The notes under the pieces: model-generated
Database searches by the model: none
What the model was told of the DNA's origin: nothing
What the model saw: only the letters and a program-made list of their open reading frames with translations
Shown: positions 34,216 through 40,587 of the stretch, piece by piece
Position numbering within the stretch: position 1 is the stretch's first letter
How the letters are laid out: each line of letters starts with the position of its first letter
Translations under genes and position numbers: made by a program
Assembly (NCBI GenBank): GCA_010356995.1
Contig: ML996692.1
Coordinates: 259,933-323,932 of the forward strand
DNA from: Trichodelitschia bisporula
Lineage: Eukaryota
Direction of reading: 5' to 3'
DNA length: 64,000 nt

Positions 34216-34308
34216 ATGTTCCTCATGATCACAGGCTTCGTGCTTTGTATCCTCCTCGTCAAAGTGATGTCCCTCGGCTGCATCGCTCTCTACATGCTCG
34301 ACTCCTGA
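34216..34308 (+). CDS. Candidate 30-aa hydrophobic uORF or micropeptide
   Basis: MFLMITGFVLCILLVKVMSLGCIALYMLDS*; CAAAACATG context; mostly C-ending codons. Confidence 0.5.
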   Translation: MFLMITGFVLCILLVKVMSLGCIALYMLDS

Positions 34309-34671
34309 GATGTGAACCCACCGCATGAGGTCGGCATGAACGTGAGTTCACCCTCCCCCCCCCCCCCCCCCTCACACTAGCACAACGCACCCAAGCATCG
34401 ATGGCGACATCCGAGCCCAAATCCCACCCGATGTCCAATGCAAGCGTTGCTTATTATCGCACCCCGCTCCAATAGCCGACTAAAGAGACGCAGGTCGGCG
34501 GCCATTTAGCCGCGAGCACATCATTCGAGAAAAAGCAACCACCACGACGGCCCAGCACGCTTATGTACCTCTGGACGTCGTGGTTTGGACGTCACTCCAT
34601 CGACTCTTCCACCACCACCACTTTATTGACAAACGACACCACCGTCGCGAAACGGCGACACGATATACGCG

Positions 34672-36928
34672 ATGACGGCAACGAGCTCGCCAGCCACGTC
34701 GTCTTCCGACGAAGGCACCTTCACCTCCATCCCCGTGCTCTCCCTCGCGCAGGCCCGCGACCCAGCCACAAAGTCCGCATTCCTAACCGCACTCCGCGAC
34801 GCCCTACTCAACATCGGCTTCCTCTACCTCTCAGACACCGGCATCCCAGACGCCCTCTTCGACCAAGTATGCACCGAAACGCTCAACTTCTTCAACGAGA
34901 CCACCCTCCCGCTAGACGAGAAACTCAAAATCGAAATGAAGAACGAAAAGAGCTTCCTAGGCTGGAGCCGGGTGCGTTAATCTTTATATCTCTTCCCTAT
35001 GTTCTATTTCCTTGGCCCCTTCGTTTTGATTTCACTTTCACTACTGTCACTACTGTCACTGTCACCCGTCCCCGCTGTCAATACGTCAACCGACTCGCGC
35101 CCCTCCCCTCACTTACTCGCGCTGCATACCCTCCCTCCCCCGCCTTACTCGCCCCCCGCCCAAGCGCCCTTGGTCCCCTCCCCTCCACCCATTGCGCAGC
35201 ATACAGTGCATAGCATGCACTCCTCAATTTCTCTCCGTGGCGAACCGGCGCGCGGATCAGCGCTGCGTTCGCCCGTTTCTGCAAAGCATGCGCAGCTCAG
35301 GGGCGGCAACACTGCCGACGCGAGGGGCGGCTAGCGCGGCGTTGACGGCGAGGCCCTTGACCGCTGTCGCGCAGGCGGGAGCTGGCGATGGCGAATGCGA
35401 TTGCGTTCTATCATATCCTTGCGGCCCACGCGGCGGGCTTGGGCCTTGTTGGGAACCTTCTTCTTGGCCGCCTCGTGGTTGATAGGCAGCGCGGTGGCGG
35501 GCTAGATTGGCGACGCTGGTGGGCCGCGCGTTGATGCTGCTGTTGGTGCGGCACGGAGTGGCCGAAGGGGGGGTTCTGGAATTTGACTTTGAGACGTGGG
35601 GGGAGAGGGGTGGGGGGTCGTTGTTGGGGTGTAAGTTGGGTTTACGGTGGCGAGATGGTTTGTAAGATTGGGGGGTGGGTTTTGTTACCGGTCGTCAGTC
35701 AGCCTTGCGTGCGATTGTCGGTATGGTGATCATGGCTGAGGAAGCGGTTTGCTTCTGGGTTCTATGCCGATGGTTACGGTCTTGCTTTTTCTGCTGTTCA
35801 GCCTTGCTCGTACCCGGCCAGCCTTGGGCCTCGTTTTCTTTGCTTTCTCTTCGATCCACTCTTTCATTTTCAGCCTTGCTATTCTCCTTCCTATCTTCCT
35901 TCGATCTCTTTCATTTCAGTCTTGCTCTCATCTCCATCTTCAGCCTCGCCTCCACCCACCCACCAGCTAACCCCCGCAGCTCAACAACGAAACCACCGCC
36001 CACCGCCCCGATTACCGCGAACAACTCGACCTCAGCACTCCACAACCTCTCCCCACCCCAACAGATCCCCTGTACTGGAACCTCAAAGGCCCAAACCAAT
36101 GGCCCTCCCCCGCGCACCTCCCCTCCTTCCGCCCCGTCCTCGAGCAGTACATGTCCCTCATGTCCTCCCTCTCCACAACCTTCACCTCCCTCATCGCCGA
36201 AGCAATCTCCCTCCCCCCCACCGCCTTCGATTCCTTCTTCGACGCAAACCAGCAACACAAACTCAAAATCGTAAAATACCCGGAAGCACCCACCTCCTCT
36301 CTTAAACCAGAAGATCGCCAAGGTGTAGGCCCGCACAAAGACTCCATGCTCACGAGTTACCTCCTCCAAGCCTCCCCCCAACTTGGCCTCCAAGCGCAAA
36401 ACCGTGCCGGCGATTGGATTGATGTACCTCCCATCCCCCGTACCCTGGTGGTAGCTATCGGCCAAGGCCTCGAGGCACTGACCGCAGGCGTATGCGCCGC
36501 AACATCGCACCGCGTGCTCTCCCCCGCCAGAGGCTCCGGTCCGCGCTACTCCGTCCCCTTCTTCCAAGGCGTGTCCTACGATGCCCAGTTCGAAGCCGTC
36601 GAAGTACCGGCCCACGTACTGCAATTAAGGGATAGGTCGAGGGCGCGGGCGGGCAAAGACGACGTTGAGTTCACGTTCGTGAAGGGGCGGTGGGGACATT
36701 TGGGGGAGGCGACGCTGTGGAATCGGGTTAAGAGTCATCCGGATGTTGGGGAGCGATGGGTGAGTACCTCTGCTGTGTGTCGTGTGGGGGCAAAGGGCTA
36801 GTTCTAATGAGCGGTGCTAGTATCCGGAGCTGTTGGCGAAGATAAGGGAGACGCAGAAGGCGGAAGCTGAGGCGGCGAGTGCTGCTGCTGCTGCGCAGCC
36901 GGCGGCGGCGGCGGTGGTGGCTGCGTAA
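34672..36928 (+). CDS. 2-oxoglutarate/Fe(II)-dependent oxygenase (DIOX_N + 2OG-FeII_Oxy, IPNS-like)
   Basis: IPVLSL..NIGFLYLSDTGI; HKD (HxD), distal H in SHRV, RYSVPFF. Exons 34672-34971, 35980-36759 and 36821-36928. Confidence 0.93.
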
Positions 36929-37807: not shown

Positions 37808-38875
37808 TTAAACCCCCCCACCACCGCCCTGCATCCCAAACATCATCCCCTGCACCATCTCCCCCTCAAACCCCTGCCCCTGAAACCCTTCCGGCCCCCG
37901 CCCCGCAGACACAGGACTCGCATACCCCCCCGCACTCACCGCCGGATACATCATATGCTCGCCCGGCGGGAAGTGCATCCCATAAGGCTCGTACACGGGC
38001 GTATGCGGCACTGGAGAACTCGGGTGATCGGCTGGAGAACTAGCGGCGCTCTGGATGCCCAAAGCGTGTTGGTGGTGCAGGCCGGCGTGTTGAGCAGCGT
38101 GGTGCTGCGCGTGCCAGCGCATTGCCGGGCCCGGTGATGCGAGGCCCACTTCGCCTAGGCTGGGGGACCGGTCGGATGCGATGCTGGGCGAGTAGGCGGT
38201 TGGGCCGGGGGCGGACCATGCGTCGGCGGGCGTGAGTGGGGGAGGTGGGACGGAGCGGGGTGGGGCGGGTTGTTGGGGGGCGGGGGTTGCGAGGCGGAGG
38301 CGGCGGGGGGAGGGTGGTGGGGGAGGTGCTTCTGTGGGGATGCCTAGAGGGGTTAGTTGAGGGGTTCTGAGGGGAGGGCAAGGGGACGTACCATGGTCGT
38401 TTAGGGCCTTGAGGGCGTCGCGCAGGCGAGCGCGGAGCTGGGCGTTGTCCCGCTCTAGGTCTTCGGCGCGCTGGGCGAGGGGTGTGAGGTGGGCGATGCG
38501 GCGCTCGAGCTGCTCAATGTGGTCCTTGGTACGCTGGCGGATGGCTCGTTGAGCCTCGCGGTCGTTGGCACGCTTACGCTCGAGTTGCGCGGCAGTGAGG
38601 GTGGAGACGGAGCGGGTACCGGCGCGTGAAGGGCGACGCTTGGAGGTGGGCCCTGAGGTGGAGGATTTGGATGTCGTGCTCGAGGTTGAGGAGGCTGTGG
38701 TTGTTGTCGTGCTGATGGGGGTGAGGAGCGGCTTGGTGTGGCTCGACGGGGAGAACTTTTGCAGATACAACGGGGCGTGCGCGTGCATCGACGGGTCGGC
38801 CGACATGGCGTAGTAGGATGATGGGGATGGGGAGTAGTGGGGGAAGGACGAGGTTGGGAGTTGGACGGAAATCAT
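37808..38875 (-). CDS. bZIP transcription factor
   Basis: QLERKRANDREAQRAIRQRTKDHIEQLERRI basic region and zipper; 48-nt intron 38391-38344; start codon uncertain (38875 or 38806). Confidence 0.9.
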   Translation of the reverse strand: MISVQLPTSSFPHYSPSPSSYYAMSADPSMHAHAPLYLQKFSPSSHTKPLLTPISTTTTTASSTSSTTSKSSTSGPTSKRRPSRAGTRSVSTLTAAQLERKRANDREAQRAIRQRTKDHIEQLERRIAHLTPLAQRAEDLERDNAQLRARLRDALKALNDHGTSPCPPLRTPQLTPLGIPTEAPPPPPSPRRLRLATPAPQQPAPPRSVPPPPLTPADAWSAPGPTAYSPSIASDRSPSLGEVGLASPGPAMRWHAQHHAAQHAGLHHQHALGIQSAASSPADHPSSPVPHTPVYEPYGMHFPPGEHMMYPAVSAGGYASPVSAGRGPEGFQGQGFEGEMVQGMMFGMQGGGGGV

Positions 38876-40587
38876 GGGTGGGGTTGGAGGGAGCCTCGGA
38901 CGATGGCCCGGCGGGAATGTGGTTTGATTTTCGTTTAGGGGTGAGATGAGGTGGTTTGAAGCGGTGTTGCTATGCTGCTGATGCTGATGTTCTGGCGTTC
39001 CTTTGGCGGCCGAGAAGAGAGGTCCGTTGGTAGAGAAGAGAAGCGGGAGATTGAGCCTTTTCAGCCTCACAGTTGGAAAGATGGGGAAGCTGGTGGTTGG
39101 ATTGGATGAGTGGGGTGGGGGCCCGGTTAAAGTTTAAAGACGGGATTTAGGCTTGCGTGAGTGAGCTATGCTGAGGCGCGTTTCGAAGATCCGCAAAGTA
39201 CCCTCGGCCCTGAGCGTCATGCGCAGTTGCAAGAAAAGGCAGTCCACCCCCGGCTGTTGGACTGGTTAGCAACCCCTGGGGGAGATCACGTATCACACCT
39301 GGGAAGACGTACTGCTGAATGGGGAACCTGGAGAAAGCAGGTGCCTGGCCTGGTCTGAGCGAAGTGAGGGGTACCGTTGGAGACTTCGGGGGCGATTGTT
39401 TTGGTGGGTTCCGGTGCTCGTACTGGTGGGAGGGGGCAAGTGGGGTGATTGGGGAGGAGAAGGTGGTGTGTTAGAAGATATGGCCAGCAAAGGGATATGT
39501 CGATAGCAATACTACAACGGTAGAAGGGCAAGAGTATGTACAGAGCAGATGGCAGCAACAGAAAATATCAGGACGGGGGGCGCAAAAGGACTCGCGCAAG
39601 GCGAACCGGTGGCATAGGAAGCCTTTATTCCAGTCTGTAGATTCGTAGACCGCAACACACCCACACACCTACAGCTCGTGGAGACAAGGCGCGGCGACCG
39701 TGCATGCACAACATGGGATGTGGTGCCTGGCCTTGCTGAGCGTAGTCCGCGTTAGTCCGGGGACAGGGCCGACCTGACGACCTGGCGTTTTGGACTTTGG
39801 CTTTTTGCGTCTTGTTGCCTTCTTGTCCATGGCTTTTTGGCGATAGAAGTGGTCAAGGCTTTTGGAGGGGGGGAGAAGGTGGAGTGGTAGGCAGTGGAGA
39901 GGGACATGGGGGTAGGGAGGGTGCAGAGAAGGAGGCGTTCGGGGCCAGGGGCGGCGCAACGAAGCCCTGCAAGCCGCCCTCTAGTGAGCTTTTTACCTAC
40001 CAGGGTACATGATGGGGCAGTTGAGTGGTGGTATTTGTGGTAGATGGTCTGTGTACATGGTGGAGTAGGAGGGGGAAGGCTTCGAGGACCGGGGGGAGAC
40101 GACCAGCGACCAGGAATCCAGGGCCGACAAGGCAGGGAGTGGTCCAGTAGCGCAGTTTGTTGGCTAACGGCGCTGGGCCAGGGCCAGCGAGGAAGAGGTG
40201 AGAGGCTTGAGTGCCCCCCAGGAAGGTGTGAAGCTCGGAGCATCTCTGGCGGAGTGAGGAATGAGGAGCAAAACGCCATGCCCTAAGCTCGTCCCTAAGG
40301 TTGTTTTGACCTCCCTCTTCCTCTCGTGCCGTGCCGTTCCTATTCCTCTTACCCAACGACCTACAAGTCCAGAGCGGTGCTAACAGCGCAGTAAGAATAG
40401 GTCCATTATTGTCGTTTCTACGCCCTAGTTCTAGTGTTAGGATCGCTGGTCAGCGGGCAGATGTTCGCGCGTCAAGCCACGAGGTTGGCCATGGGTGGGA
40501 GAAGTGAGGGAGAGAGGTAGAGAGAGGATGAGCAAGGCGCGGTGTGAAGAGCTGCGGGGAAGGCGTTTCAGGATCAGCGTGGGTGTG

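Follow-up and report, generated by a model that had tools for sequence, protein, structure and literature searches.

A long intron kept at one site across a Dothideomycete clade, and its partly unspliced RNA, in a dioxygenase gene of Trichodelitschia bisporula

Filamentous fungi splice by intron definition, and their introns usually measure near 50 to 70 nucleotides (nt). Why, then, does a gene for a 2-oxoglutarate (2OG)-Fe(II) dioxygenase of Trichodelitschia bisporula contain an intron of 1,008 nt? The gene lies on the plus strand of a 64,000-nt stretch of contig ML996692.1 (assembly GCA_010356995.1, forward-strand positions 259,933 to 323,932); this whole stretch is called the window, and all positions below refer to it. 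Given the usual size of fungal introns, one that is kept at no less than 325 nt across several orders is a natural candidate for intron-borne regulation, of which, to our knowledge, few fungal cases are known beyond thiamine pyrophosphate (TPP) riboswitches. An earlier note, made from the sequence alone, had proposed that this intron contains a structured GC-rich core and a possible poison exon. The answer that we favor, with a probability of roughly 35 to 40%, is that the intron is spliced slowly or retained and thereby throttles expression of the gene.

The dioxygenase gene and its long intron

The product carries a DIOX_N and a 2OG-FeII_Oxy domain, and the intron breaks DIOX_N cleanly, with nothing lost between exon 1 and exon 2 according to Pfam. 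Using exon 2 as the query, we retrieved a public protein of 395 amino acids (aa), P0001, named in its source 'Clavaminate synthase-like protein [Trichodelitschia bisporula]' and 100% identical to the spliced product; the next-best relative in that search showed 77% identity. Across the intron site, the sequence LGWSR/LNNETTA (the slash marks the site) is uninterrupted in all 31 aligned orthologs. Among solved structures, the host protein is closest to an ethylene/succinate-forming enzyme (E 2.2e-32). The stretch is represented in four public runs, all as contigs. X1 and X2 are DNA, and X3 and X4 come from one sample of one study. The latter two were treated as RNA-type because their contigs carry splice joints; the RNA label is a guess for which these joints are the sole backing. 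The coding part of the gene is laid out as follows.

34672..34971, plus strand: first coding exon, 100 codons from the ATG at 34672; Pfam DIOX_N positions 1 to 75 (E 7.6e-15); residues 1 to 100 of P0001
34972..35979, plus strand: phase-0 spliceosomal intron, 1,008 nt, GTGCGT...CTAAC...CAG; GT..AG skip in contigs of X3 and X4, of neither X1 nor X2
34978..34980, plus strand: TAA stop, reached in the exon-1 frame after two intron codons (...GWSRVR, then stop; open reading frame 34630..34980)
35967..35971, plus strand: branch site CTAAC, read from the sequence, the sole CTRAC of the intron, 7 nt before the terminal AG
35980..36759, plus strand: second coding exon, 260 codons; DIOX_N positions 77 to 116 and 2OG-FeII_Oxy (E 3.7e-17); 100% identical to P0001
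36760..36820, plus strand: 61-nt intron; GT..AG joint 36758>36820 (cut +1) in X3 and X4
36821..36928, plus strand: last coding exon, 35 codons plus TAA (36926 to 36928); 100 + 260 + 35 = 395 aa, the length of P0001

Three GT..AG joints, skipping 152, 1,008, and 61 nt, were found in the contigs of X3 and X4 and none in those of the DNA runs. The joint of the long intron, 34970>35979 (cut +1), is an exact skip of 1,008 nt. Together with the split Pfam domain and the identity of the spliced product with P0001, this skip confirms that the 1,008-nt intron of the earlier note is real. Its GT...AG ends with fungal donor consensus, its CTRAY branch site, its removal in RNA, and the restored protein are those of a U2-type spliceosomal intron. 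The interval from 34972 to 35979 is almost certainly a canonical U2-type phase-0 intron of exceptional length, removed as one 1,008-nt unit to give the 395-aa protein. Other coding-region introns had been described as about 40 to 70 nt long; we checked this within the present gene, where it holds for the 61-nt intron, the remaining intron being 152 nt long and situated in the 5' untranslated region (5'UTR).

A single splice form would have spoken against regulated splicing. Instead, unspliced contigs running from exon 1 into the intron occurred beside the spliced form. In X3, such a contig (34942 to 35569) had a depth of 96.6 and an intron-interior contig (35619 to 35888) one of 205.3, compared with 740.7 for the spliced contig. 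In X4, the unspliced contig (34942 to 35387) reached 200.8 and the spliced contig 1,767.4. The bin within the 152-nt 5'UTR intron had a depth of 0 in both runs, which argues that the unspliced long-intron contigs are not DNA contamination. By contig depth, a rough measure, the long intron was more often unspliced than the 152-nt intron. The contigs give no strand and no ends, and depth is one figure per contig. Gaps in the intron cover (in X3 from 35570 to 35618 and after 35888, in X4 after 35387) were not used as evidence.

According to the reading that we favor, the long intron would be spliced slowly or incompletely, and part of the transcripts would keep it. Those transcripts would meet the stop two codons past exon 1, and the intron would act as an expression throttle, possibly a regulated one, beside a leader that bears an upstream open reading frame (uORF). 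Reading through the intron gives GTG CGT TAA, that is, a stop after two codons, and retained-intron transcripts therefore cannot make the enzyme. The exon-1 frame also closes in all 16 orthologous introns described below, after 2 to 99 codons. Intron retention that produces stop-containing transcripts has been described in fungi, for example for Yarrowia lipolytica in a report (PMC2911113) that we cite for this point only. The present gene resembles fungal intron retention and 'detained' introns in that one intron stays unspliced beside the spliced form and brings an immediate stop, with the 152-nt intron showing no cover. It differs from these systems in intron length, which is some 15-fold that of a usual fungal intron and has been conserved within a clade.

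Intron length in related fungi

The DNA of relatives is known from metagenome contigs. Scanning these with a 31-protein alignment yielded 80 loci, which were mapped by tblastn and GT/AG rules. The coding sequence is contiguous, with no intron at the site, in 27 of the 80, which make up the group with 54 to 69% identity. Nine contigs begin in or near the intron (L046, L047, L049 to L051, L063, L064, L075, and L076), and 44 loci gave two matched pieces; of the latter, four were filtered out (L055, L056, L059, and L080) and two mapped doubtfully, with a GC donor (L054 and L061). A long phase-0 intron at exactly the site of the window was present in 22 of the 44, or 16 distinct sequences after removal of identical copies, with lengths of 488, 470, 334, 511, 337, 489, 450, 543, 654, 333, 325, 675, 395, 539, 349, and 348 nt. 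Two loci have a short intron at exactly this site (L066, 49 nt; L078, 55 nt). The other 14 have an intron of 50 to 112 nt located 11 nt upstream and are lichen-type sequences.

The best named match for exon 2 of the long-intron loci was Alternaria (99.6%). Pyrenophora, Paraphoma, Parastagonospora, Byssothecium, and Paraconiothyrium matched at 91 to 95%, Coniosporium at 84%, Mytilinidion at 83%, and Aulographum at 73%, and one lineage was unnamed; the short-intron loci L066 and L078 resemble Baudoinia and Neohortaea. A maximum-likelihood tree of 48 exon-2 sequences, built on this single gene, placed the window and all 16 long-intron sequences in one 33-row clade (support 93/94), in which the branch of the window is long and its exact placement unsure, and the short-intron and shifted-intron sequences in the other clade. 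Within the clade of the window, the intron at the site measures 325 to 1,008 nt in 17 of 17 distinct sequences with DNA, versus 49 to 55 nt in the sister lineage. A long intron at this exact site is thus ancestral to one Dothideomycete clade and has been maintained in it. The suspicion that the intron is special was justified, since its orthologs measure 325 to 675 nt in all 16 distinct same-clade sequences. Short or unconserved orthologous introns, named in advance as the outcome that would speak against it, were found in one respect only: the length is kept, and the sequence of the window intron is not conserved.

The intron length distribution of Neurospora peaks at 60 to 69 bp according to the figures taken from PMC4317165. 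Our literature search, limited in extent, found nothing on such a long conserved intron in this gene. The 61-nt third intron has often been lost in the same clade: its flanking motif could be located in 7 of the 10 loci examined, and ERWYP is unbroken in 6 of these 7 (L041, L025, L069, L022, L060, and L046), the exception being L052, which retains the intron (GTAAGT following the W codon). None of these loci has lost the long intron. One public protein, P0088 (Pyrenophora teres f. teres 0-1, 414 aa), has 36 extra residues exactly at the intron site, meaning that a portion of the long intron was annotated there as coding sequence. On the nearest locus, L022, the last part of this insert maps about 33 nt before exon 2, a spacing that suggests an artefact of gene prediction, and the insert was set aside as a likely one.

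The lichen-type loci with the upstream intron, which is in phase 1, are L031, L032, L035, L037 to L040, L044, L053, L057, L058, L062, L067, and L077. Several of their introns have an unusual donor, GTATAT or GTATAA, without G at +5, and GTATAT is also the core of a block kept inside the long Pleosporales-type introns.

Several points weigh against slow or incomplete splicing. A single depth figure per contig is a poor measure of transcript level, and the RNA nature of X3 and X4 was guessed. Instead of retained-intron mRNA, the unspliced RNA may represent nascent pre-mRNA or transcripts that ended too early; none of the contigs listed for X3 and X4 crosses unspliced from the intron into exon 2, and the intron cover is patchy. 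The orthologous long introns carry strong signals (donor GTGAGT or GTAAGT, branch site CTGAC or CTAAC), which does not suggest selection for poor splicing. The 17 sequences are mostly metagenomic, and the one-gene tree leaves the place of the window unsure. Finally, the length could persist neutrally.

In that last case, the intron would have been lengthened once in the ancestor of the clade and never deleted, and the unspliced RNA would be ordinary pre-mRNA, more visible because the intron is long. We hold such a history to be somewhat unlikely. None of the 17 distinct sequences falls below 325 nt, with 49 to 55 nt at the same site in the sister lineage, and the neighboring short intron disappeared from six of the seven clade loci in which its motif was found, all of which kept the long one. 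The intron sequences speak on both sides. In blastn, the window intron gave only one 18-nt low-complexity match to the orthologous introns, hence no significant similarity to any of them, and lengths from 325 to 1,008 nt amount to a threefold spread. For L025 and L030, a more distant pair, alignment of the intron is confined to about its last 150 nt, and the flanking non-coding DNA aligns in patches; the sharing of blocks by Pleosporales-type copies where the flanks align only so patchily speaks against neutrality. A published model, cited here for its general argument (PMC9748784), allows neutral sequence between constrained borders to persist despite deletion bias.

Shared blocks, composition, and folding of the intron interior

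The Pleosporales-type introns share short blocks. A CCGGGTATATCCC-like block (plus strand, at most 3 mismatches) occurs in 9 of the 17 introns. In the Pleosporales types it is located 100 to 250 nt before exon 2, where GGGTAT is invariant in all 11 aligned introns. A CTGCCATTAC-like block lies 40 to 77 nt after GGGTAT and is followed by a pyrimidine-rich tract and a TGCTGAC branch site. The CTGCCATTAC block is exact in 6 distinct full introns and in L047, and it is found in 10 of the 17 distinct introns when 1 to 3 mismatches are allowed. As an exact 10-mer, it occurred 12 times in 486,479 nt of loci, both strands counted, and always in this intron: 11 times in mapped introns (6 distinct sequences) and once in the partial intron of L047. 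The contigs L046 and L051, which start inside the intron, contain the same blocks. Palindromes among the common blocks are CCCGGG, ACGCGT, ACGGCCGT, and GCATGC. A profile of 12 Pleosporales-type intron 3' parts matched nothing between 34000 and 37500 of the window, and its only match anywhere was L068 (E=11).

Comparison of the orthologous introns by tblastx gave matches in several frames and on both strands, which indicates conserved DNA and not a reading frame. In close ortholog pairs, intron identity exceeds identity at four-fold sites; these pairs align over whole loci, so that this comparison says little. Two candidate roles were rejected, namely, an in-intron start codon in frame with exon 2, which is not conserved, and pairing of GGGTAT with the KYPE codons of exon 2, which vary without a matching change in the block. 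RNAalifold, applied to 11 orthologous intron 3' parts, found no consensus structure (3 pairs, 0 covarying).

Such blocks could act as DNA. The intron might be kept long by a cis-regulatory module in it or by a promoter, either internal or antisense, an explanation that we consider unlikely. It would make sense of the ordered GGGTAT, CTGCCATTAC-like block, and pyrimidine-rich tract, of the confinement of the exact 10-mer to this intron, and of the missing RNA consensus fold, and the palindromic form of several blocks fits dimeric DNA-binding proteins. The purine-to-pyrimidine switch common to most copies, the window included, and the depth of the X3 contig from 35619 to 35888, about twice that of the 5' intron contig, point the same way. 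However, neither the window nor the non-Pleosporales copies contain the blocks, the GGGTATCT and GGGTATAC variants are poor TATA boxes, and the contigs show neither transcript start nor strand. In addition, when followed upstream from the 3' splice site, the exon-2 frame closes within 0 to 7 codons in 12 of the 17 introns, which argues against an N-terminally extended protein.

Most copies, the window among them, follow one composition plan: a pyrimidine-rich start, a purine-rich middle, and a pyrimidine-rich part near the 3' end. Heterogeneity of composition was significant (p<=0.01) in 12 of the 17 introns. The pyrimidine-rich stretch is located 16 to 97 nt before the 3' splice site, where the lowest purine window falls in 12 of 17; in the intron studied here, that lowest purine window ends 77 nt before the 3' splice site. 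A donor-like hexamer closes the purine-rich tract in L023 (GTATGT), in L068 (GTAAGA), and in the Pleosporales types (GTATAT or GTATCT). With 59% GC, the window intron is richer than its orthologs (42 to 50%). Its interior contains the following features.

35090..35200, plus strand: C-rich stretch, the 5' arm of the earlier note, with three imperfect 30-nt direct repeats (repeat family D1); GC skew -0.42
35233..35558, plus strand: GC-rich 'core', 67 to 68% GC, non-coding and unconserved; three-base periodicity 0.71, no relative in orthologous introns
35598..35629, plus strand: G-run tract (G6, G4, G6, G4) directly 5' of GTAAGT, read from the sequence
35631..35636, plus strand: GTAAGT, the only internal consensus donor-like hexamer; no use seen, with the X3 contig from 35619 to 35888 reading straight through
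35699..35962, plus strand: 3' part, rich in pyrimidines, in which five TCAGCCTTGC-like repeats occur (families D2, D3, and D5)

The skew runs from C-rich to G-rich and back to C-rich, in keeping with the C-rich and G-rich arms described before. The G-runs from 35598 to 35629, immediately ahead of GTAAGT, conform to a G-quadruplex motif at the level of the intron RNA, and the C-run stretch from 35090 to 35200 would give such a motif on the other DNA strand. A coding core was rejected for either strand: the minus frames of 145, 76, and 56 aa and the plus frame of 57 aa had no Pfam match at E<=1, and the three-base periodicity of the core was 0.71 to 0.85 versus 7.7 to 8.8 in exons. A weak blastn similarity between the core and positions 38200 to 38440 is low-complexity GC-rich sequence.

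No second copy of the intron sequence was found in the 64-kb window, and a repeat or mobile element was rejected on that ground. One 6,298-nt DNA contig of X1 spans the whole intron and both flanks, which indicates that the words of the intron are unique in the X1 assembly. The long, GC-rich, locally self-complementary interior is reminiscent of the introner-like elements known in Dothideomycetes. These are described, in the portion of PMC3609843 drawn on here, as multi-copy, recently gained, longer than regular introns, and stably folded by prediction. Greater length and canonical splice signals are shared. Unlike those elements, however, this intron is single-copy as far as testable, its core has no target-site duplication around it in the sequence as read, its site is ancient and not a recent gain (the same phase-0 site in 16 distinct orthologs and the 2 short ones), and its fold is no better than shuffles. 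An introner or other mobile insertion is exceedingly improbable.

Folding was assessed by minimum free energy (MFE). At its exact boundaries, 35233 to 35558, the core gave a plus-strand z of -2.85 (1 of 100 shuffles as good) and a minus-strand z of +0.17, and none of 62 GC-matched 326-nt windows elsewhere reached -2.85 (mean -0.26, sd 1.11, minimum -2.63); these boundaries had been picked to begin and end on a helix. When 326-nt windows were slid over the intron without such a choice, their z-scores (-2.22 to +0.60) did not leave the range obtained in the same way for three control 1-kb regions (minima -2.10, -3.85, and -3.88). The pair of intron windows closest to the core in position (starts 35197 and 35242) scored +0.10 and -0.42. 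The two local plus-strand lows of a 150-nt slide were -3.35 (35150 to 35299) and -2.83 (35450 to 35599) among 136 window-strand tests with 40 shuffles each, and they were given no further weight. For the whole intron, z was +0.94 (16 shuffles), no better than shuffled controls, which the earlier note had itself named as evidence against its proposal. The 16 orthologous introns scored from -0.78 to +2.63.

In long introns of yeast, pairing reportedly shortens the distance from the 5' splice site to the branch site, as Goguel and Rosbash in 1993 and Rogic et al. in 2008 are said to have described. The C-rich and G-rich stretches of the window intron could likewise pair across its interior. Unlike in the yeast case, the structural distance in the MFE fold, 23, was like that of shuffles (21.6±10.7), and pairing that shortens the intron was rejected; only 2 of 16 orthologous introns were at or below the fifth percentile of their shuffles.

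All motifs of the earlier note are present: the closing pair CTCCGTG (35233 to 35239) and CACGGAG (35552 to 35558); the pseudoknot strands GCTGCG (35262), CGCAGC (35291), CGCCC (35270), and GGGCG (35301); the CAG ending at 35374, GTAAGT at 35631 to 35636, and ACTTAC at 35111 to 35116; and the 256-nt interval from 35375 to 35630 with an in-frame TGA at 35480 to 35482, 35 codons after 35375. The intron contains 36 perfect 7-mer inverted pairs compared with 34.4±9.0 in 200 dinucleotide shuffles, 45% of which reach 36, and shuffles that keep local composition contain 46.0±9.6. In a kilobase this rich in GC, the closing helix and the pseudoknot appear to have arisen by chance, as do the match between ACTTAC and GTAAGT and the 256-nt 'exon'. 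Tested against shuffles, unbiased windows, and orthologs, the helices, pseudoknots, and donor/acceptor pairs that had been selected by eye did not hold up. Folding like that of controls, the lack of a relative in orthologous introns, and the lack of covariation leave the structured core and its pseudoknot without support. The GC-rich interior is almost certainly single-copy (as far as tested), non-coding, unconserved in sequence, and not specially folded.

Rfam families were sought with cmscan between 34000 and 37500 at E<=10, where the sole hit was a chance match to the L31 leader, located in exon 2, and in ten orthologous loci at E<=1, where there was none. The absence of a TPP aptamer, noted before, was borne out by the lack of an RF00059 match in either search. 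These searches lend no support to a known non-coding RNA hosted by the intron, and the missing consensus fold among the orthologs lends none to the proposed undescribed structured RNA. A processed small non-coding RNA, such as a small nucleolar RNA, would be accommodated by introns of at least 325 nt, short blocks with variable spacers in the Pleosporales types resemble the conservation of guides and boxes, and RNA-type contigs cover the interior. However, no C/D or H/ACA arrangement was seen by eye in the ortholog alignments (no systematic scan was run), and the interior contigs are continuous with exon 1. We regard a hosted RNA as very improbable.

The interval of the poison exon and its in-frame stop are there, and cassette-exon joints at 35374 or 35631 were absent from the X3 and X4 contigs, which drop rare forms. 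A weaker form of the proposal is that an internal donor (GTAAGT at 35631 in the window, GGGTAT in Pleosporales types) serves as an alternative 5' site or defines an exon that acts as a poison or a decoy, diverting transcripts to nonsense-mediated decay or stalling splicing. GTAAGT follows the purine/G-rich tract in the window just as donor-like hexamers end that tract in L023, L068, and the Pleosporales types, and in lichen-type orthologs the shifted intron actually uses GTATAT as its donor. A decoy-exon model for retained long introns in mammals (set out in PMC7373989, used here for its outline) offers a parallel in the long, partly unspliced intron with an internal donor-like site after a purine-rich tract. 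It differs in that use of the internal site is not seen in contigs, X3 reading through 35631 unspliced, and in that no matching internal branch site exists: the real branch site is the sole CTRAC, GTAAGT and ACTTAC also being single copies, so that the proposed acceptor has no canonical one. No conserved acceptor or branch site for an internal exon was found in the orthologous introns, to which the window shows no homology. One donor hexamer per 1 kb is about chance, and its placement was noticed after the fact. We consider this weaker form improbable. Its strong version, a structured or ligand-sensing core, is a small part of that and hence highly improbable, given the negative folding, the lack of covariation, and the lack of an Rfam match.

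Fungal TPP-riboswitch introns of the NMT1/THI4 type are long introns in thiamine metabolism genes. Like them, the present intron is long, lies in a metabolic gene, contains an internal donor-like site, and brings a premature stop into forms that are unspliced or alternatively spliced. It is unlike them in having neither a TPP aptamer nor another Rfam family, no conserved fold, and a dioxygenase instead of a thiamine gene as its host.

The 5' leader and the downstream neighbor

The throttle that we favor would act beside a leader with two features of its own.

34216..34308, plus strand: hydrophobic uORF of 30 codons, situated in this mRNA's 5' leader; found by translating the frame, on an RNA-type contig that also holds the main ATG
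34342..34493, plus strand: 152-nt 5'UTR intron; GT..AG joint 34341>34494 in X3 and X4, not in X1 or X2; zero depth inside

Similar open reading frames of 29 to 36 codons with a central lysine are located 129 to 586 nt upstream of the ortholog coding match at many loci from several lineages (L078/L028, L009, L079, L004, L066, L041, L048, L033, L025, L030, L060, L069, L071, and L022/L026). With a profile built from four copies, additional copies scored between E 5e-20 and 2e-14. Scores for the Pleosporales form were weak with this profile (E 0.5 to 5), and Pleosporales copies are clearly alike among themselves. Judged from these sequences, the frame resembles either a uORF that encodes a conserved peptide or a tiny gene for a membrane peptide.

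Slow splicing, DNA-level signals, and the uORF might also belong together. The intron would then be an old, selectively kept control device of at least about 300 nt across a class-level clade. Lineage-specific signals within it (the GGGTAT...CTGCCATTAC module in Pleosporales, perhaps the G-rich tract with GTAAGT in the window) would delay or divert splicing through a detained intron or a decoy exon, or drive an internal transcript, and, with the uORF, enzyme output would be set by a cellular signal. This combination is possible, and we put it forward tentatively. For experiments, the comparison yields the Pleosporales blocks, the intron length itself, and the uORF as testable targets.

Upstream of 34300, the leader spans 251 nt or more; additional short frames that begin with ATG occur in the leader. 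Downstream of the dioxygenase gene, a long open frame on the minus strand (37808 to 39133) shows a bZIP-like basic region and a P/A/S-rich body.

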